Of a stretch of 64,000 bases of DNA, positions 10,154 to 45,459 are shown in pieces. How positions within the stretch are numbered: position 1 is the first letter of the stretch; every line of letters begins with the position of its first letter. This DNA comes from Staphylococcus sp. CAG:324 (lineage in GTDB: Bacteria > Bacillota_I > Bacilli_A > ML615J-28 > CAG-313): the NCBI GenBank assembly GCA_000433035.1, contig FR890814.1:5443-69442 (forward strand). The letters are read 5' to 3'. A model generated the notes under the pieces. The model worked only from the letters and a program-made list of their open reading frames with translations. It did not search any database and was not told where the DNA came from. The translations under genes and the position numbers were made by a program.

Positions 10154-11386
10154 ATGAAAGGTTCTGTACTAATTGGACAATCAGGCGGTCCAACAGCTGT
10201 TATCAATGCTAGTTTACAAGGAATTATTGAAGAAGCCTTCAAAAATCCTCTTGTAACTAACGTTTATGGAGCTCTCAATGGCATTGATGGCATTTTAAAT
10301 CATCAAATTATTGATTTTAAATATGAAACAAAAGAAAATTTATCTTTACTTAAAACTACTCCTAGTTCTATTCTTGGTTCAGTTAGATTTAAATTAGAAG
10401 ATTATCAAAAAAATGATGAAATTTATAAAACTATCGTTTCTATTTTTACTAAATTGAATATTAAATATTTCTTTTATATTGGTGGAAATGATTCAATGGA
10501 TACTTGTTATAAAATTAGTCAGTATTTTAAAGCTATTCATTTTGAATGTATGGTAATTGGAGTGCCTAAAACCATTGATAATGACTTAGTTCATACTGAT
10601 CATACACCAGGATATGGTTCTAGTATTAAATATATTGCTACAACAATTGCCGAAATATACCAAGACATTGAATGCTATAAAAAAGGTAAGGTTACAATTG
10701 TTGAAATTATGGGACGTGATGCTGGATGGCTTACAGCAGGCACAAAACTTGCTTCATTATCCAATAATGGTCCTGATTTAATCTATTTGCCTGAAGTTCC
10801 ATTTGATATTGAAACCTTTTTAAAAAAGGTTAAACATATTTATGATAAAAAAGGCCATGCTTTAATTGCCATATCTGAGGGTATTAAAGACAAAGAGGGA
10901 AAATATATCTTAACATATCGTTTATTCAACAATAATGATGATTTTGGTCATCTACAATTAGGTGGAGTTGGACAAGTAATTGCGGAAACTATCAATAGAG
11001 AATTGAAACTTCCTATTAGAAGTATTGAATTAAATATTCCCCAAAGATGTGCATCTCACATTTCCTCACTTACCGATATTGAAGAAGCTTATAATTGTGG
11101 GAAAAAGGCTCTTCAATTTGCCACCTTAAACCATACTGGAAAAATGATTGCTATAAAACGTATTTCTCATAATCCTTATCAAATAACTTATGAAATGGTT
11201 GATTTAGCAAATGTTGCTAATTTTGTAAAAAAAGTTCCACAAAATTATATAACTAATGATGGATGTAACATTACAAAAGATTTTATCGAATATGCTTTAC
11301 CTTTAATTCAGAAAGAACCTTTAATCATTTATACAAATGGAATGCCAACTTTTGCTAAATTAAAGAAAAAAATAATTGATTTTTAA
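10154..11386 (+). CDS. 6-phosphofructokinase of the PPi-dependent/long (Pfp-like) clade.
   Basis: N-terminal GQSGGPTAVINAS and the MGRDAGWL motif. Confidence 0.7.
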   Translation: MKGSVLIGQSGGPTAVINASLQGIIEEAFKNPLVTNVYGALNGIDGILNHQIIDFKYETKENLSLLKTTPSSILGSVRFKLEDYQKNDEIYKTIVSIFTKLNIKYFFYIGGNDSMDTCYKISQYFKAIHFECMVIGVPKTIDNDLVHTDHTPGYGSSIKYIATTIAEIYQDIECYKKGKVTIVEIMGRDAGWLTAGTKLASLSNNGPDLIYLPEVPFDIETFLKKVKHIYDKKGHALIAISEGIKDKEGKYILTYRLFNNNDDFGHLQLGGVGQVIAETINRELKLPIRSIELNIPQRCASHISSLTDIEEAYNCGKKALQFATLNHTGKMIAIKRISHNPYQITYEMVDLANVANFVKKVPQNYITNDGCNITKDFIEYALPLIQKEPLIIYTNGMPTFAKLKKKIIDF

Positions 11387-11411
11387 AAGGTAGTATTATA
11401 AATACTACCTT

Positions 11412-13049
11412 TTATTTTTTATCGTCTTCTTCAATATTATTATTTTTTTCTTGACTATAGATTATGGCATGGTGAATAAATTCACTAAATAAAGCATGTG
11501 CTCGATTCGGTCTTGAACTAAATTCTGGATGAAATTGACAAGCAATAAACCATGGATGATTTTTAAGTTCAACTATTTCAACCAATCCAGTTTCAGGATT
11601 TATCCCACTTACAATCATGCCGGCATTTTGAATTCTATCCAAATATTTATTATTAAATTCATATCGATGGCGATGGCGCTCTTTAATGACAGTCTGCTTA
11701 TAAGCTTCAAATGCTTTTGTATTCTCTTTTAAAAGACAATCATATGCTCCTAGCCTTAAAGTTCCACCTAAATTAATTCCTGTATATTGATCAGGCAAAT
11801 AGTCAATGATGGGGTTAGTTGTGTTTTCACATAACTCTGTTGAATCAGCATCGCTTATTCCCAAAACATTTCTAGCAAACTCAATAGTTGCTAGTTGCAT
11901 ACCAAGACAAATACCTAAAAAAGGAATATTATTTTCTCTAGCAAATTTAATCGCTTGAATTTTACCATCAATTCCTCTAGGACCAAATCCTCCAGGTACT
12001 AAGATTCCATCACAGTCTTTCAAATAATTTTCAACATTATCTTCAGTTACATCATCTGCTAAAATCCAATTGATATTTATCTTTTTGCCATACCTATATC
12101 CTGCATGTTTTAATGCTTCATTGATAGATAAATAAGCATCCTGTAATTGAACATACTTACCAACAAGAGCAATATTTACTTCACCTGACAATTTTTTTAT
12201 TGTTCTAATTAAATTATTCCATTCTATCATATTTGGTGCTTCTGTTTCAAGTCTAAAAAAATCACATATATACTGATCAGCACCTTGATTATAAAGATTA
12301 TTAGCAACTTCATATAGTATCTTCACATCTTTTGAAACAACTACTGCTTTTTTATCCACATCACAAAAAGATGAAATTTTCTCTCTTAATTCATCATTAA
12401 TATCAACCTCTGATCTCAATACTAGCATATCAGGTTGAATACCAAGTGATCTAAGTTCTTTTACGCTATGTTGAGTAGGCTTCGTTTTTAACTCCGATGC
12501 TGCTTTAACAAAAGGAATTAAAGTAGTATGAACATAAAAAGTATTATTATATCCAACATCTCTTCTCCACTGTCTAATTGCCTCTAAAAATGGTAAAGAT
12601 TCAATATCACCAACAGTTCCTCCAATTTCAGTAATGATAACATCAGCCTTAGAGGTTGTAGCTGCCGATAAAAGTCTTGCTTTAATTTCATTGGTAATAT
12701 GAGGAATTACTTGAACGGTTTTACCAAGGTAATCTCCAGATCTTTCCTTATTAATAACTGCCTGATAAATTTTACCAGAAGTAACACAAGATTCCTTTGT
12801 CAAATCCTCATCAATAAATCTTTCATAATGTCCTAAATCTAAATCAGTTTCAGCCCCGTCAACTGTAACATATACTTCTCCATGTTGATAAGGACTCATT
12901 GTTCCTGGATCAATATTAATATATGGATCAAATTTTTGCATAAAAACTTTCAATCCACGATTTTTTAACAATCTTCCTAACGATGAGGCAACAATTCCCT
13001 TGCCAAGACTAGAAACTACTCCACCTGTTACAAATATATATTTTGCCAT
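11412..13049 (-). CDS. pyrG: CTP synthase.
   Basis: [20 protein letters not shown]-terminus and the glutamine amidotransferase GICLGMQ motif. The start was moved to the second ATG, which has a GGTGA RBS. Confidence 0.9.
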
Positions 13050-13166
13050 TATCTTCACCATTCCATTCTAAATTTTAATACTAAAAAAAGAAAAAACCCG
13101 ATACAACGGGAAGTGCGCTTTTTTAAGCGCCCTTAATATTATATAAAAAAAGAAATCATTTGTCAA
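13050..13166 (-). promoter_or_regulatory. pyrG promoter (TTGACA-17-TATAAT) and a reiterative-transcription-type leader. The transcript starts GGGCGC, has a 5' hairpin GCGCUU-aaaa-AAGCGC, and carries an intrinsic terminator CCCGUUGUAUCGGG followed by a U-run whose 5' flank is CUUCCC.
   Basis: Minus strand reads TTGACAAATGATTTCTTTTTTTATATAATATTAAGGGCGC...CACTTCCCGTTGTATCGGGTTTTTTCTTTTTTT. This is analogous to the B. subtilis pyrG GGGC leader (Meng, Turnbough & Switzer). Confidence 0.55.
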
Positions 13167-13251
13167 ATAAAATTTAACACATTTTGTCGAAAACGTTTTC
13201 TGATAATTTTTCTTTACTTTTTTTTTTTAATATATTATAATATTAGAGTAA

Positions 13252-13320
13252 AAGTCATATATTTCTGATAATATGGTTCAGAAGTCTCTACATTATCACC
13301 GTAAATGATAATACTATGGT
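13252..13320 (+). ncRNA. Purine riboswitch of the guanine class (C at the discriminator position).
   Basis: UCAUAUA...UCUGA-UAAUAUGGU-UCAGA...AGUCUCUACA...UUAUCA-CCGUAAA-UGAUAA...UAC-UAUGG matches the P1/P2/P3 layout of the xpt G-box. An upstream TATAAT lies at 13236-13241. Confidence 0.6.
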
Positions 13321-13394
13321 AACAATTGAATAATTGCTTAAAAACCGCTGTTATGGCTTTTTACAACAAAAAATTTTTAAGGAGGACTTCTTTA

Positions 13395-14912
13395 ATGGAA
13401 GACAAAAAACAAAAAAATGTTGGGAAGCTCGACAGCTTTTTTGGCGTTTCTAAAGCAGGCTCAACAATTAAAGTAGAAGTGTTAGCTGGTGTTGCAACAT
13501 TTCTTGCGATGGCTTACATCTTAACTGTTAATCCTAATTCTATGTTATGGGGTGGTACAGCAGATGTACGTTGGTCGTCAGTATTTATTGCTACTGCTCT
13601 TGGTGCTGTAATTGGTACTTTATTAATGGCCCTACTTGCTAAAATGCCTCTTGCTCAAGCATCTGGTATGGGATTAAATTCAATGGTTGGTTCTATTCTT
13701 GGTGGAGCATTTGGATTTACCTTCTCATTTGGTAACGCTATGTTACTAATTTTAATTAGTGGTATTATCTTCTTACTTCTTTCTGTAATACCAGCTGGAC
13801 GTGATAAAGAAACCAAAAAATTAATTACTTTAAGAGAATTGATTTTTATTGGTATGCCAAAACCTGTTCGTACCGCAATACCTGTTGGTATTGGTTTATT
13901 TATTGCCTTCATTGGTTTACAAAATTCTCATCTTGTTCAAAATAATGATTTTACTCTTTTACAATTTGTTGATTTTACGCAAGCAGGAGCATGGGCAAAA
14001 GGTGGCGATGCTAGAGCAGCAGTAGTAGCACTTTTTAGTTTTGTTGTCATTGCTGTTCTTTCACATTTTAAAGTCAAAGGTGCCGTTGTTTTTGGTATTC
14101 TTGCCGCAACTTTACTTGCATGGCCATTAGGAGTTACTAATATTGATTATCTTCTTGGTAAAACGGATGGCGTAACTTGGAAATTCTGGGAAAATTTTGC
14201 TAATTTCTTTTCATTTGATCCAAATAATGGTGGTATCTTCGGTGCTGCTTTTACAGAAGGTTTTAACTTTCCAAAAGATTCTTTGATGACATGTGTAATG
14301 TTAATTATTACTTTTGCAATGATTGATATGTTTGATACAATGGGTACAGTTGTTGGATGCTGTGCTAATGCTAATTTATTAGACGAAAATGGTGTTCCAA
14401 AAAATTATGATAAAATCATGCTATCAGATTCAGTTGCTACATGTACTGGTGCAATCTTAGGTACTTCAACGGTTACAACTTTTGTTGAATCTGGTGCTGG
14501 TGTTGCAGCAGGTGGAAAAACAGGTTTAACTGCTTTAGTTACTGCTATCTTATTCTTATTATCAATTTTCTTATTACCAGTATTTGCTTTTATTCCAAGT
14601 GCAGCAGCAGCAGGTGCTTTATTATATGTTGGTGTATTAATGATGTCTAATGTTAAAAATATTGATTTCTCATCACCTAAATCTGCCGTTCCTGCTTTTG
14701 TTACAATTGCAATGATGCCTTTTGCCTATTCAATTACTGATGGTATTGGTCTTGGTCTTATAACTTATGTTATTATTTCAATATTTACTTTCTTTATAGA
14801 TTTGATTAAATATGCTTGTCATAAAGGTGAAAAACCTAAATGGGATATTTCAGTTGTAGCTATTATAGTAACTGCGTTATTCTTAGTATATTTCTTAGTT
14901 CCAACTGTTTAA
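13395..14912 (+). CDS. pbuG: Guanine/hypoxanthine permease (NCS2/AzgA-PbuG family).
   Basis: VSKAGSTIKVEVLAGVATFLAMAYILTVNP is the AzgA/PbuG N-terminal signature. RBS GGAGG lies 9 nt upstream of the ATG at 13395. Confidence 0.75.
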   Translation: MEDKKQKNVGKLDSFFGVSKAGSTIKVEVLAGVATFLAMAYILTVNPNSMLWGGTADVRWSSVFIATALGAVIGTLLMALLAKMPLAQASGMGLNSMVGSILGGAFGFTFSFGNAMLLILISGIIFLLLSVIPAGRDKETKKLITLRELIFIGMPKPVRTAIPVGIGLFIAFIGLQNSHLVQNNDFTLLQFVDFTQAGAWAKGGDARAAVVALFSFVVIAVLSHFKVKGAVVFGILAATLLAWPLGVTNIDYLLGKTDGVTWKFWENFANFFSFDPNNGGIFGAAFTEGFNFPKDSLMTCVMLIITFAMIDMFDTMGTVVGCCANANLLDENGVPKNYDKIMLSDSVATCTGAILGTSTVTTFVESGAGVAAGGKTGLTALVTAILFLLSIFLLPVFAFIPSAAAAGALLYVGVLMMSNVKNIDFSSPKSAVPAFVTIAMMPFAYSITDGIGLGLITYVIISIFTFFIDLIKYACHKGEKPKWDISVVAIIVTALFLVYFLVPTV

Positions 14913-36753: not shown

Positions 36754-36801
36754 ATTTAAACCAAACTCTCAAAAAGGTTCTAGGAGGAACCTTTTTTGAT
36801 T
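36720..36801. repeat. Left copy of an 82-bp direct repeat, comprising the last 34 nt of the yjcZ-like CDS plus its bidirectional terminator (AAAAAGGTTC-taggag-GAACCTTTTT).
   Basis: It matches 45378-45459 at 81 of 82 positions. Confidence 0.8.
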
Positions 36802-39902: not shown

Positions 39903-40016
39903 TTAAGCACATTTATCATAACCATAACCATCATCATTATCTTTTCCAGTTGAACCAGTTAATTCAAACATATCACCTAAAATAATATATGATGGCTTTT
40001 CATAATTATTATTCAT
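39903..40016 (-). CDS. Lasso peptide precursor of 37 aa: MNNNYEKPSYIILGDMFELTG | STGKDNDDGYGYDKCA.
   Basis: RBS AAAGGAGGTG lies 7 nt upstream. The leader matches YxxPxLx3Gx5Tx (Y5, P8, G14, T20; only L is replaced by Y), with the penultimate leader residue Thr. The core begins with Ser, has Asp at positions 7 and 8 for isopeptide formation, and has bulky Tyr in the tail. This is the only sizeable intergenic gap in the operon. Confidence 0.6.
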   Translation of the reverse strand: MNNNYEKPSYIILGDMFELTGSTGKDNDDGYGYDKCA

Positions 40017-40031
40017 TATTGACACCTCCTT

Positions 40032-41468
40032 TCAGACTTTTAATACGGGAAACCTTGATATTTCAATAAATTGCTTTTTTATTATATTAGAATCAGTAAT
40101 AACTATTTCATCTATTTCTACCCATGAATGAAATTCGAATAAATTAGTAATATGATACGAAGATTTACCAATTACGACTTGAGATGGAATTCCAATAGTA
40201 ATTAGTGCTGTACACAAAGATATTGATCTTTCTAAGCATAGCATACCTTCATTATTTTCTTTACCAATCTTACGTAAAATCGGAATAATTTTACTAACAT
40301 AATTACAAAAATCAATACTAGAATAGTTTAAAGTGTTTTGTTCAATTAAATATTTATTTTTATGAAACAAAGTATTTATTAGTTTTATAGCATAAGAAAC
40401 CCCTTTTTTATGAATTAATGAAATAGATTTTATATAATTTCTAGTCATATGTTCAAAATCCGTAGAATTTATTTCAAAAGAATTTTTGACCAATTCTTCG
40501 TTATACAAAAGAGTCATTAATTTATCATAACAAAATGTTTCATTTATATCCATATATAATTGGTTAACATTACATACATTTGGATAATTAACTATATATT
40601 TATCAACATTATTAGCTAAATTAATTAACAAATTTATTTTCTTGTTTAAAAATGGACTCAATATATTTGTTTGATAATTTAAAATATTTTTTATAAAATT
40701 ATAATTATTCAATAATTCTATTTGATATATATTATTTTTTTTAGTTCCTAAAATTATAACTTTACTTAATTTTATAGTATTTTGATATTGTATATTTTGG
40801 AAATAATATTTTTTACTTTTTGTTAATAAAACACTATCAAAATCTATTGGTTGCTTATCTAAACTTTTTTTTATTCCAATACCAACATTAATTCCTTGAC
40901 AATTCAATTGTTTATCTATTATACAAAAAACATCATCACTCAAAATTTCATAATTATATTTATTATTTAATTCTATAGATATTGATGTCTTACCATACCC
41001 AGACTTTCCCAACAACGCTACTCCTTCATTTGTTGTTTTATTAACCAATAATGCTCCATGAAAAATTATTTTGTTATTTTCTAAAAACGCAATGGATAAT
41101 GGATCTAAAAAATACTGAAAAAACATATTTCTTTTATTATATATTTTTTTTATATAGAAAATAAACTTTTTTTTCAAAAATAACCATTTTGCATAACTTC
41201 CATCTTTATAAAAAATATTATATTCTTGATTGTTTTTATCATAAATAAAACTACCAATTAATAATTCATATTTAATTCCTTTCTTATGAATTTTGGGTAT
41301 ATAATTATTATCAAAATTATATTCAAATATGTAACTTTCCTTATTTGCTATATGATTATTTTTACAATTTGAACCTAAAATATTGAATATAAAATTTGTA
41401 TTTTCTAAATCATTCGTTTTTATTTCAAAATTTTCACCAAATACATTAAATTTTAGTATATCATTCAT
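40032..41468 (-). CDS. Fusion protein with an N-terminal HPr-kinase-like (HprK C-terminal domain) kinase and a C-terminal lasso B2 transglutaminase-like leader peptidase.
   Basis: The kinase part reads FHGALLV...GVALLGKSGYGKTSISIEL...ILSDDVFCI, which follows the HprK P-loop pattern HG.lv..G.G.L..G.SG.GKSE.aLEL....L..DD. The peptidase part reads EGMLCLERSISLCTALITIGIPSQVVIGKSS...FEFHSWVEIDEIVITD, giving a Cys-His-Asp triad as in McjB-type B2. Confidence 0.6.
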   Translation of the reverse strand: MNDILKFNVFGENFEIKTNDLENTNFIFNILGSNCKNNHIANKESYIFEYNFDNNYIPKIHKKGIKYELLIGSFIYDKNNQEYNIFYKDGSYAKWLFLKKKFIFYIKKIYNKRNMFFQYFLDPLSIAFLENNKIIFHGALLVNKTTNEGVALLGKSGYGKTSISIELNNKYNYEILSDDVFCIIDKQLNCQGINVGIGIKKSLDKQPIDFDSVLLTKSKKYYFQNIQYQNTIKLSKVIILGTKKNNIYQIELLNNYNFIKNILNYQTNILSPFLNKKINLLINLANNVDKYIVNYPNVCNVNQLYMDINETFCYDKLMTLLYNEELVKNSFEINSTDFEHMTRNYIKSISLIHKKGVSYAIKLINTLFHKNKYLIEQNTLNYSSIDFCNYVSKIIPILRKIGKENNEGMLCLERSISLCTALITIGIPSQVVIGKSSYHITNLFEFHSWVEIDEIVITDSNIIKKQFIEISRFPVLKV

Positions 41469-41721
41469 TTATCAATATTCCAATACTTATCATACTATTA
41501 ACAAATTCGTTGTAATCTTTTTCAATTATACTTGTATCTATATTATATTTTTCTTTCATAAATTGAATAATTTCAAACGAAGTTTTTCCCTTTTTTATTA
41601 AATCTAAAATACAATAACTTGTATAATTTATAGAAATAAATTGTCCATTATTTAAATTAGTAATAATTGCTTCTTCATCTATTAAAGTAATATCAACATT
41701 TTTAGATATATTTAATTTCAT
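41461..41721 (-). CDS. Lasso B1 protein (PqqD-like RiPP recognition element).
   Basis: At 86 aa it fits a PqqD-family fold (TSFEIIQFMKEKYNIDTSIIEKDYNEFVNSMISIGIL). It overlaps both neighbouring genes. Confidence 0.65.
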   Translation of the reverse strand: MKLNISKNVDITLIDEEAIITNLNNGQFISINYTSYCILDLIKKGKTSFEIIQFMKEKYNIDTSIIEKDYNEFVNSMISIGILINE

Positions 41722-43258
41722 AATTTTCCTCCATCTTTTTTAACCAATTAAAAACCAATATTGTATCTATTATTAAAAATTTATATTTTATTATTTCATT
41801 TTTATTATTTAATATTTTATCTATAACTTTAAAATCAAAGAAACAAGAAAAATTACTTTTCTTAATTTGATTTATTTTATAAATTATTTTATCAATTGAA
41901 TTAAATAATAATTTTTCACTTAAAACTCCATAACAACTTTTTGAATTTCTTGAAATTATAGAAAAAGGTATATTTTCTTTAAAAGCAAATTTTAAAATAG
42001 GTTTAGCAATGATTTTTCCACCATAAGGTAATGCTTTATAAATTTTAGGAATACTATTTGAGAAAGATATTAAATCTTTATCTATATATGGATTTATATC
42101 TATTACATTATATTTATTAGCTAAATATAATCTCATTGCTTCTCTTTGTAATAAAACCGCATATAGTCTTTGATTATTTGACTTAACATTTTCACATTTA
42201 ATAAATGTTTTTTTTCCTTCTATTTGTTCATTTATAACATATGGAACATCTATAAATTCTACAATTCCATTTAAATGATTTAAATACGATTTTTTAAAAA
42301 AACTACTAACATTTATAAATATTTTATCGTCATTAAATCTTTGTAAATATCCTCCAAAAATTCCATCACCATTTAATCCACTTAAAATATACTTTATATT
42401 TTTTTCTTTCATAAATTGGTAGGTTTTATCCCACCAATAAATACTTGTATGAATAAATGGATATATAATATTTTCATTTAATAATAAATATTCATCTATA
42501 TTATTAATTTTATCAGACATATCAATAAATATTAATTGAATATTATATCTTTTACAAAACTCTACTGCAAAATTACTTTCATCCACTTGATAATATTTAT
42601 TTGATGTCCAATGTATACAAATAAAGTCTTTCTTTAATAAATATAAACAATAAGCAATTACAATAGAATCTATTCCACCACTCATTGAAACACAAATTTT
42701 ACTATTTATTCCTTTTGTTCTTTTTTCTACTGACTTAATAACCAATTTTTTTGCTTCTTTTACGTAATCATTAAAAGTATATAAATTATATTTTATATCC
42801 TTTTCAATACAATTTTGATAAAGTATCTTTAATTTATTATTATCTATTGATACTAAAGTTCCATAATCTATTAATTTTATATTATTAAAAGGAAAAAAAT
42901 AATTTCTTTGTATAATTCCTAATATAGCTTGTTTATCAATTTCAATTATTTCTTTTTTTAAATATAAATTATAGTAATCATCTGTTACTAACAGCATATT
43001 ATTTATATTTTTATAATATAATATGACATTTGATGTATTGGATATATATATATAATCTAAACCTCTATAATTAAAAATTAAAATACAGTCTCCATCAATT
43101 TCTTGAAATTTAATACCATTATCTATAAATAAAAGAATTTTTTCAATAATATTTTTAATATCATCAAATATTCTTCCTAATACAATTATTTTGATTAAAT
43201 TATTATGAACTTTAATCTGATATTCTTCCTTATATGTTTTAGTAATTATAATTTTCAT
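41702..43258 (-). CDS. Lasso cyclase C (asparagine synthetase B-like, ATP-dependent macrolactam synthetase).
   Basis: PP-loop SMSGGIDS. Size and neighbourhood fit. Confidence 0.65.
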   Translation of the reverse strand: MKIIITKTYKEEYQIKVHNNLIKIIVLGRIFDDIKNIIEKILLFIDNGIKFQEIDGDCILIFNYRGLDYIYISNTSNVILYYKNINNMLLVTDDYYNLYLKKEIIEIDKQAILGIIQRNYFFPFNNIKLIDYGTLVSIDNNKLKILYQNCIEKDIKYNLYTFNDYVKEAKKLVIKSVEKRTKGINSKICVSMSGGIDSIVIAYCLYLLKKDFICIHWTSNKYYQVDESNFAVEFCKRYNIQLIFIDMSDKINNIDEYLLLNENIIYPFIHTSIYWWDKTYQFMKEKNIKYILSGLNGDGIFGGYLQRFNDDKIFINVSSFFKKSYLNHLNGIVEFIDVPYVINEQIEGKKTFIKCENVKSNNQRLYAVLLQREAMRLYLANKYNVIDINPYIDKDLISFSNSIPKIYKALPYGGKIIAKPILKFAFKENIPFSIISRNSKSCYGVLSEKLLFNSIDKIIYKINQIKKSNFSCFFDFKVIDKILNNKNEIIKYKFLIIDTILVFNWLKKMEENYEIKYI

Positions 43259-43274
43259 AATTAATACCTACATT

Positions 43275-44759
43275 TTATTTTATCAATAATGGTTTTCTAT
43301 AATATGGCTGTATACAAAAACATTTAAAAATAGAATTATTTTTTAATTTATACAAATACATATTAAATCCAATATTTCTATTTATATCTAAATAATGAGG
43401 AAATTTATTTAAATCAATTATTAAAGTTGTTTCTACTAATCCATTCTTAATTTTAACTATTTCATCAATATACCCATAATAAAATTCCTTTTCTTTTTCA
43501 TAATCATATAAAGAATTAAATGTTGGTGCATAAAATAAACTTTTTATTATATTATTATTTATCATACGTAAAGTTATAGGTATATATGGATCTATAAATT
43601 CACCAGTTTTTCTATATCCAAATATATTTAAATGAATTACCATATTTTCTTCCATTCTAGGTTTTATTTGTATATATAAAAGATTATCTTTTTTTATGTA
43701 TTTAAAATCAGTTATTATATTGTTGTAAAATACTAAATGATGAGGTAATACCTTATTTCTTTTTGTAAAATTAAAATAACCTAAATAATATTTTTCAAAA
43801 TATTTAATTAATTCTAAATTATTAAAAAATCTATCAAATATAGCCAAATTATCTAATAAATCATCATTATCTTTAATTTTATTTTTTAATAACTTTTTAC
43901 ATTTCAATAAAATAGTTTTATCATTAAAAATATAACTTAACTCTAAAAATATTTTGGATACCATTTTTAATGAAACATTATTATAACGTAAAATAAAAAT
44001 TATTTCATGATAGTCAAAATAAATAAAATATTTTTTTATGTACAAATATAAATCAATTGCATATTGTAAATTTATTTTTTTTTGATTTCTTAAAAACTCT
44101 ATATTTCTTGTAAACTCTAAATAATATATAATTAAACAACAAAATGTTTCATTTAAATTAAATGTTTTTACATTATTAGATAATATTTCTATTTGATTAA
44201 TTGTTTTTATTAGAGGTTTATACAAATGAAATTTTGTTTTTAATTCAATAGTAATAACTTGTTTTTTATATATTACTAATATCTTTTTTTCTCCACAAAT
44301 TTCAATTGTTTTATTCCTTATATCTTTAAATTTTTTAAATTTATTTCTAACTAAATCTACAAACTTTTCCTCTTCATCATTACTAATAATAATATCTATA
44401 TCATCAAACTGTCTTATATTATGTAAATCATATATTAATTTTTCTAAAATTATTCCTTTATAAAGGATATAATTTATATGGTTTTCTTCAAGTAGCTTTA
44501 TTAATTCAATAAATACTTCATTATATATATTTTTTTTTACTAATAAATATTTTTTTATACTATGAATTTTATTTGCAATATTTAAAAATTTTTTAATATT
44601 TAATAATTTAGAATAAAACCTTAAAAATATTTTTTGATTATATAATAATCTTAGCACTTCCTGACAATCAATGTCTGCAAAATAATCATTTTCTAGATTT
44701 TCATTCCTTATTAAACTTACTATAAATTTTTCTTCTTTTTTTATAATTTTTTCCTCCAT
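43275..44759 (-). CDS. Putative nucleotidyltransferase (NTP_transf_5-like) of the kind found in Firmicute kinase-associated lasso clusters.
   Basis: YKGIILEKLIYDLHNIRQFDDIDIIIS is a GS/hG...D.D-type nucleotidyltransferase motif. Confidence 0.45.
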   Translation of the reverse strand: MEEKIIKKEEKFIVSLIRNENLENDYFADIDCQEVLRLLYNQKIFLRFYSKLLNIKKFLNIANKIHSIKKYLLVKKNIYNEVFIELIKLLEENHINYILYKGIILEKLIYDLHNIRQFDDIDIIISNDEEEKFVDLVRNKFKKFKDIRNKTIEICGEKKILVIYKKQVITIELKTKFHLYKPLIKTINQIEILSNNVKTFNLNETFCCLIIYYLEFTRNIEFLRNQKKINLQYAIDLYLYIKKYFIYFDYHEIIFILRYNNVSLKMVSKIFLELSYIFNDKTILLKCKKLLKNKIKDNDDLLDNLAIFDRFFNNLELIKYFEKYYLGYFNFTKRNKVLPHHLVFYNNIITDFKYIKKDNLLYIQIKPRMEENMVIHLNIFGYRKTGEFIDPYIPITLRMINNNIIKSLFYAPTFNSLYDYEKEKEFYYGYIDEIVKIKNGLVETTLIIDLNKFPHYLDINRNIGFNMYLYKLKNNSIFKCFCIQPYYRKPLLIK

Positions 44760-45377: not shown

Positions 45378-45459
45378 TTTTATTAGTAATTATTGGTACT
45401 GCACGTTGGTAATTTAAACCAAACTCTCAAAAAGGTTCTAGAAGGAACCTTTTTTGATT
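45378..45459. repeat. Right copy of the 82-bp direct repeat. It is an orphan duplicate of the yjcZ 3' end plus terminator and carries one G-to-A difference in the terminator loop.
   Basis: It aligns to 36720-36801. Confidence 0.8.

Follow-up and report, generated by a model that had tools for sequence, protein, structure and literature searches.

The leader of the CTP synthase gene pyrG in the window (the whole 64,000-nt stretch of DNA that was analysed) is probably a CTP-sensitive reiterative-transcription attenuator of the Bacillus subtilis pyrG type, carried by an uncultured, Anaeroplasma-like gut bacterium of the Acholeplasmatales. A sequence-only reading of the same DNA had proposed such a CTP-sensing attenuator, and the proposal is supported by the leader sequence, by comparison with related genomes and by folding models. 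The mechanism itself is already known; the leader is a further example with in silico support from sequence and modelling, and it opens no new question. The start site, slippage, terminator activity and CTP response of this particular leader are properties that we infer.

According to Meng, Turnbough & Switzer (2004), as summarised in PMC7039003, the B. subtilis pyrG transcript, beginning GGGCUC, is terminated at the attenuator when CTP is high; when CTP is low, the GGG is lengthened by as many as ~10 G residues, which base-pair with a pyrimidine-rich tract on the 5' side of the attenuator. The elements given there as required are the initially transcribed GGGC (the initially transcribed region being GGGCTC; PMC7039003) and this pyrimidine-rich tract. 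In the window, both are present in the right order before the CTP synthase gene.

In the proposed mechanism, RNA polymerase would start at the G run of GGGCGC, 5 nt past a consensus -10 box. With ample CTP, C would be added at +4 and transcription would proceed normally, the 5' end of the transcript folding as a GCGC hairpin; the CCCG/CGGG stem would then form just before the U-run, and most transcripts would stop before pyrG. With scarce CTP, the polymerase would stall before +4, and GGG would slip on the template CCC, yielding extra G residues. Lying directly 5' of the hairpin, these could pair with the CUUCCC tract directly 3' of it, giving a helix of ~12 bp with one bulged A. Such a helix would capture the three C residues needed by the terminator and could form before the 3' arm CGGG; with the terminator disabled, transcription would read through into pyrG.

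Organization of the pyrG Leader

The pyrG gene (11412..13049, minus strand) encodes a 545-aa protein with matches to CTP_synth_N (1.2e-125) and GATase (1.1e-40). The product is a CTP synthase in public records, where an identical protein is named 'CTP synthase [Acholeplasmatales bacterium]'. The start codon is the ATG at 13049, in agreement with homologue alignments and with the 545-aa calls in public assemblies. An in-frame ATG at 13061 (minus strand), 12 nt upstream of the real start, would give a 549-aa open reading frame; this longer call is found in many short public contigs (P0002 and similar ones), and long contigs have the 545-aa call. The short contigs (1.8-2.3 kb) with the 549-aa call were considered as possible transcript assemblies, in which the start site or added G residues might be visible, a view that was rejected, as they are DNA fragments with arbitrary ends.

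All leader elements lie on the minus strand between 13166 and 13049. The promoter scan revealed a 12/12 consensus match, TTGACA-17-TATAAT (13166-13138), as the sequence-only reading had stated. The -35 hexamer TTGACA (13161..13166) is kept in the related leaders L001, L173, L175, and L177, and the -10 hexamer TATAAT (13138..13143) is invariant across the four aligned relatives. A 5-nt spacer, ATTAA, separates the -10 box from GGGCGC (13132-13127), which was thus found where the start had been placed. The predicted initially transcribed GGGC (13129..13132), assigned by its distance from the -10 box and by comparison with GGGCTC of B. subtilis, comprises the slippage-prone G run (13132-13130) and the predicted CTP-sensing C at +4 (13129). 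Around CGCTTAAAAAAGCGCACTTCCC, the genome reads TTAAGGG before CGC. The transcript is predicted to start at G1 or G2 of the GGGC: owing to the 5-nt spacer, G1 is the sixth and G2 the seventh base after the -10 box, and the usual start at the seventh base, i.e., at G2 and not at G1, counts against the attenuation reading. In the folding model described below, a start at G2 instead of G1 moves the response curve by one G only.

The small 5' hairpin that had been noticed at the start of the transcript is GCGCUU-AAAA-AAGCGC (13115..13130; 6 bp, -7.1 kcal/mol), corresponding to positions +3 to +18 of the predicted transcript. A single A (A19) lies between it and the pyrimidine tract CUUCCC (13108..13113), the proposed partner of the extra 5' G residues. 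The attenuator hairpin CCCG-UUGUAU-CGGG (CCCGUUGUAUCGGG, 13097..13110) has four G-C pairs, a 6-nt loop (UUGUAU) and a calculated stability of -5.2 kcal/mol, and its 5' side overlaps the tract. It directly abuts the U-run UUUUUUCUUUUUUU (U6CU7; 13083..13096), which is kept in the relatives. The intrinsic terminator claimed earlier is therefore present as a hairpin and a U-run, but it is weaker than the claim implied. Likewise, CUUCCC was found as described, but only its last three C residues belong to the stem, of which they form the 5' side. Between the U-run and the Shine-Dalgarno sequence GGUGA (13055..13059, 5 nt before the ATG) there are 23 bases. The leader measures 83 nt, close to the estimate of about 80 nt, and its stretch from +1 through the terminator hairpin takes up only 36 nt.

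Statistical Significance and Sequence Stability

The terminator scan, which required at least five pairs, did not call the hairpin of the pyrG leader, as its stem has four. With so short a stem (4 bp, -5.2 kcal/mol), missed by the scan, termination before pyrG may be inefficient. Perfect stems of at least 4 bp with at least three G-C pairs and T5 directly after them occur at 12 sites in the window versus 0.39 in shuffled sequences; the other sites are located mostly at gene ends, and the pyrG leader is the only one of the 12 with a 4-bp stem. The motif TATAAT-N4-7-GGGC alone is no rarer than expected by chance (one occurrence in the window versus 0.6 expected). The weak, uncalled stem and the chance expectation of the motif are what one would expect also from an ordinary strong promoter followed by an unregulated 5' UTR, in which the 5' hairpin would stabilise the mRNA 5' end, the terminator would be leaky or functionless and CTP would not be sensed. 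We consider this explanation improbable, since it leaves several features of the related leaders unaccounted for (see below).

Six independent public assemblies of the same organism, encoding the same PyrG, have this leader without a single base change. The few variants in other assemblies, such as a G-to-A change in the terminator loop (L188) and a T-to-C change in the U-run (L168, PyrG 97% identical), do not affect the stem pairs.

Folding Models

The modelled RNA ran from +1 through the terminator hairpin, with n extra G residues added at its 5' end. The mean probability of the terminator pairs was 0.98, 0.98, 0.88, and 0.54 for n = 0, 1, 2, and 3, respectively, and at most 0.01 for four or more extra G residues. 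In the same model it remained at 0.98 with any number of extra A residues. The pairing of extra G residues with the CUUCCC arm, postulated earlier, was thus reproduced by the model. In the winning fold at four or more extra G residues, the 5' hairpin continues past the bulged A19 as far as CUUCCC and reaches about 12 bp. The five members of the GGGCGC clade all switch in this way, the terminator probability falling from 0.95-0.98 to 0.0-0.4 by n = 4-6. The modelled threshold of four G residues agrees with the engineering result for B. subtilis, where four extra templated G residues increased pyrG mRNA ~325-fold (PMC4403831); about four thus suffice both in the window, according to the model, and in the engineered B. 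subtilis leader.

In transcripts cut before the 3' arm, both of the window and of the classical leaders, the C tract is already paired as soon as extra G residues are added. When the full hairpin is present, poly-G loses at equilibrium to the terminators of the GGGCAC-type and Oceanobacillus leaders introduced below; therefore, the effect in those leaders must be kinetic. In the clade of the window, the models suggest that timing and stability both favour the antiterminator.

Folding of the full-length leader raised another possibility, namely control of translation, with CUUCCCGUU pairing with the ribosome-binding region, and extra G residues or some other factor freeing the region. In the window, the probability of the Shine-Dalgarno sequence GGUGA being unpaired was 0.23 without extra G residues and 0.66 with at least four. 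The effect is not conserved, the corresponding accessibilities in L001 being 0.60 and 0.62, and the z-score of the leader fold is only -2.0. At best, such pairing could supplement attenuation. The idea that CUUCCC masks the ribosome-binding site, predicted in the window and absent from the L001 model, was dropped, and we regard translational control as highly unlikely to be what the leader serves for.

The GGGCGC Subtype in Close Relatives

A metagenome scan with the N-terminal 150 aa of PyrG yielded mostly distant taxa; close relatives were obtained by protein search and by look-up of their contigs. The closest genome match was a metagenome-assembled genome (MAG) of Anaeroplasma bactoclasticum (83% PyrG identity), and the next-best matches were MAGs of Anaeroplasmataceae and Acholeplasmatales (~70%). 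The organism of the window is itself frequent in gut metagenomes, its exact PyrG being recorded in 2080 blocks of the sequence collection. Leaders of the same GGGCGC subtype as in the window were found at 73-83% PyrG identity (L001, L173/L174, L175, and L177). They have the arrangement TATAAT-N5-GGGCGC, with a second GCGC 8-9 nt downstream closing the hairpin, followed by 1-5 unpaired bases, (Y)CCCG-loop-CGGG (4-5 pairs) and a U-run. Their terminators, CCCG(A/U)...(U/G)CGGG, have 5 bp versus 4 bp in the window. The GCGC...GCGC hairpin is present in all GGGCGC relatives (L001, L002, L006, L173, L175, and L177), and in L002 and L006 the hairpin, formed as in the window, is combined with a longer terminator.

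Thus, GGGCGC, the GCGC hairpin, CCCG..CGGG and the U-run persist at 73-83% PyrG identity, and the loops and spacers vary. Retention of all these parts while neighbouring bases change is difficult to explain if the 5' UTR is unregulated. Within the pyrimidine tract (CUUCCC, UAUCCC, AUUACCC, CUUACCC, GUACCCC), only CCC(C) is conserved and the bases beyond it vary, so that the earlier emphasis on the whole CUUCCC arm has to be narrowed to its C residues. As the stem pairs are invariant, covariation lends no support within the close clade; when the leaders of the five clade members are aligned, indels fall within the stems.

Several related leaders do without the element. In L172 (82% PyrG identity), the TTGACA/TATAAT promoter is almost unchanged and unrelated sequence stands in place of GGGC and the terminator, which looks like a natural loss of the attenuator. 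In L169, the gene upstream of pyrG is another one, of the FtsH type, and the attenuator is missing; L176 lacks GGGC. These three loci indicate that the element is dispensable, and they count in favour of the unregulated leader.

pyrG Leaders in Related Genomes

Comparison with other pyrG leaders, suggested earlier as a check, bore out the attenuation reading. The 230 nt upstream of pyrG were read in 80 related genomes of Acholeplasmatales, Izemoplasmatales and Haloplasma. In about 50 of them, pyrG is preceded by a -10 box, a spacer of 5-8 nt (usually 6), GGGC, and a hairpin with a U-run. In several other genomes, pyrG directly follows another gene, e.g., that of glutamine synthetase (L178), and such a leader is absent. 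Over all loci fetched, there were 64 distinct pyrG leaders with GGGC 5-7 nt after the -10 box. The classical form, with GGGCTC as in B. subtilis, was seen in Oceanobacillus (L075, Bacillaceae).

Among the 36 leader terminators identified by a strict stem finder, C outnumbered G in the 5' arm of 35, and G outnumbered C in none, a count that is not to be read as a probability, since the leader sequences are related to one another. In 93 other terminator-like hairpins of the same loci, C exceeded G in the 5' arm in 30 cases and G exceeded C in 55. A one-sided, C-rich 5' arm is what pairing with poly-G requires. The arms differ between lineages and are still complementary, e.g., GTTCTTC/GAAGAAC and GAGTCTCCT/AGGAGACTC, as well as TGCTTTCCT/AGGAAAGCA and GCGTTTCCCCA/TGGGGAAACGC. 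RNAalifold predicted no pairs on a MAFFT alignment of 32 GGGCAC-type leaders, because their 3' arms were aligned out of register; pairing in these leaders was judged from hairpin calls, sequence by sequence.

Neither the position of GGGC after the -10 box in 64 distinct leaders nor the invariably 5' location of the C-rich arm (35 to 0) is explained by an unregulated 5' UTR. The same data bear on regulation by GTP. Some B. subtilis promoters are sensitive to the initiating nucleotide, and with a G start their output follows the GTP pool. The predicted start of pyrG lies in a G run, and a GTP-sensing promoter, with downstream hairpins having no switching role, could even coexist with attenuation. 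However, GTP sensing needs no C at +4, no terminator and no C-rich 5' arm, all three of which are conserved; it would explain only the G, and as the account of the leader it is very improbable. Reiterative-transcription attenuation, by comparison of these sequences, appears to be the common mode of pyrG control in Acholeplasmatales, Izemoplasmatales and Haloplasma. Known from work on Bacillus and deduced for streptococci and lactococci, the mechanism would now extend to these wall-less lineages.

Two further variants were observed. In L029-L032 and L044 (also in L034 and L072), mostly of the Izemoplasmatales type, AAAGAGC(T/A)CAC occurs where relatives have AAGGGCAC, ~80-110 nt upstream of pyrG, and the UUCUCC-armed terminator is kept. 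As these leaders have GAG in place of GGG, simple G slippage is not expected, and they may be regulated differently. In L047 and L076 (L061 is similar), the last ~60 nt before pyrG contain GGGCACCCCC...GAGGAGGU, a U-run and the start codon. The partner of the C tract here is the Shine-Dalgarno sequence, so that a single poly-G extension might govern termination as well as ribosome binding.

Comparison with Known Systems

The window shares with B. subtilis pyrG a sigma-A-type promoter, a GGGC start (predicted in the window), a leader terminator with a pyrimidine-rich 5' arm, and the CTP synthase gene that follows. Several features differ. First, the initially transcribed region is GGGCGC in the window and GGGCUC in B. 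subtilis. Second, the non-template bases -2/-1 are AA in the window versus TT in B. subtilis, so that the window lacks the accessory TT feature. Most close relatives of B. subtilis have A at template positions -1/-2 (TT on the non-template strand), and a pyrimidine at template -1 leads to poly-G of at least 20 nt in vitro (Shin et al.). At non-template -1, 45 of the 64 leaders have A, and nearly all of these 45 belong to the mollicute lineage; of 13 loci outside that lineage, 11 have T or C. Third, the 5' hairpin of the window, unlike B. subtilis, takes in some of the initially transcribed bases and directly adjoins the pyrimidine tract.

The window and the GGGCGC clade have 5 nt between the -10 box and GGGC, as compared to 7 nt in the classical Bacillaceae form L075; most other leaders of the mollicute lineage have 6 nt, and most of the remaining ones 7 nt. 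The terminator has 4 bp (-5.2 kcal/mol) in the window and 14 bp (-22.8 kcal/mol) in L075, and at equilibrium poly-G wins in the former and not in the latter.

The GGGCAC-type leaders of Acholeplasmataceae, Anaeroplasmataceae, Izemoplasmatales and Haloplasmataceae have in common with the window TATAAT, A-rich positions -2/-1, GGGC, a CUCC/CUUCC 5' terminator arm and a length of 35-45 nt up to the U-run. Unlike the window, they have a 6-nt spacer, no 5' hairpin and terminators of 7-13 bp (-8 to -18 kcal/mol). A limited literature search yielded no published description of GGGCAC-type leaders in these families. The pyrG leaders of Lactobacillales, e.g., of Streptococcus agalactiae (PMC4448216), are also counted among the closest known systems. 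A hairpin between GGGC and the terminator, as in the window, was found in four metagenome loci (L102, L107, L108, and L145). In these it begins after GGGC, whereas the hairpin of the window includes part of GGGC; they have T or C at -1, a spacer of 7 nt in most cases, and longer terminators than the window. Finally, the known U-run slippage system likewise reads a nucleotide pool by homopolymer slippage in the initially transcribed region. It differs in that slippage is triggered by high nucleotide levels, the transcripts are released and non-productive, and no terminator/antiterminator pairing is involved.

Rather tentatively, the mechanism in the GGGCGC clade could be viewed as reduced to a minimal equilibrium form, in which the 5' hairpin acts as a clamp holding the extra G residues beside 3-6 pyrimidines and about four G residues override a terminator of 4-5 bp; A at non-template -1 may alter the length of poly-G, or its path in the polymerase, as compared to B. 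subtilis. This view is doubtful. The compact 36-nt leader, with its built-in hairpin and very short terminator, would be a convenient minimal template for finding out how few extra G residues are needed and for testing whether the template -1 base sets the length of poly-G, as Shin et al. propose.

Genomic Context

The pyrG promoter faces a divergent gene for a permease (Xan_ur_permease, plus strand) preceded by a purine riboswitch aptamer (RF00167, 76.8 bits; 13235-13336, plus strand), which follows a promoter-like site TTTACT-17-TATAAT (13213-13241). The real start of the permease gene is probably near 13395 and not at the TTG at 13326, because public assemblies call a protein of 505 aa. The 345-bp intergenic region would therefore harbour two divergent nucleotide-sensing leaders placed back to back.

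Proximity of a riboswitch-controlled gene, together with the fact that PyrR often controls pyrimidine genes in Firmicutes, could speak for attenuation mediated by a protein such as PyrR or by a ligand-binding RNA of an unknown kind. The purine riboswitch, however, lies on the opposite strand and goes with the divergent permease gene. Rfam detected no family on the pyrG leader in the whole window at the gathering threshold, and in a search of 12000-14500 at E<=10 no family, PyrR included, fell on the leader, the only hit being the purine riboswitch. With only 36 nt from +1 to the end of the terminator, there is no room for an aptamer. Protein- or riboswitch-mediated control is thus extremely improbable, and slippage at GGGC is the reading that we retain.

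At the other end of pyrG, a perfect 12-bp hairpin TAAAAGGTAGTA-N7-TACTACCTTTTA (11384-11414) is located between the convergent ends of the phosphofructokinase gene (plus strand) and pyrG (minus strand) and could terminate both; a T-run follows it on the plus strand, the only strand flagged by the stem finder. A palindromic hairpin GGTTC-N6-GAACC occurs twice, ~8.7 kb apart (36776-36791 and 45434-45449), with identical flanks that are T-rich on both strands. The two copies could represent a bidirectional terminator that is repeated, or they could belong to a larger repeat. The G+C content of the window varies from 18 to 32%, being 18% at 40001-44000 and about 27-30% elsewhere.
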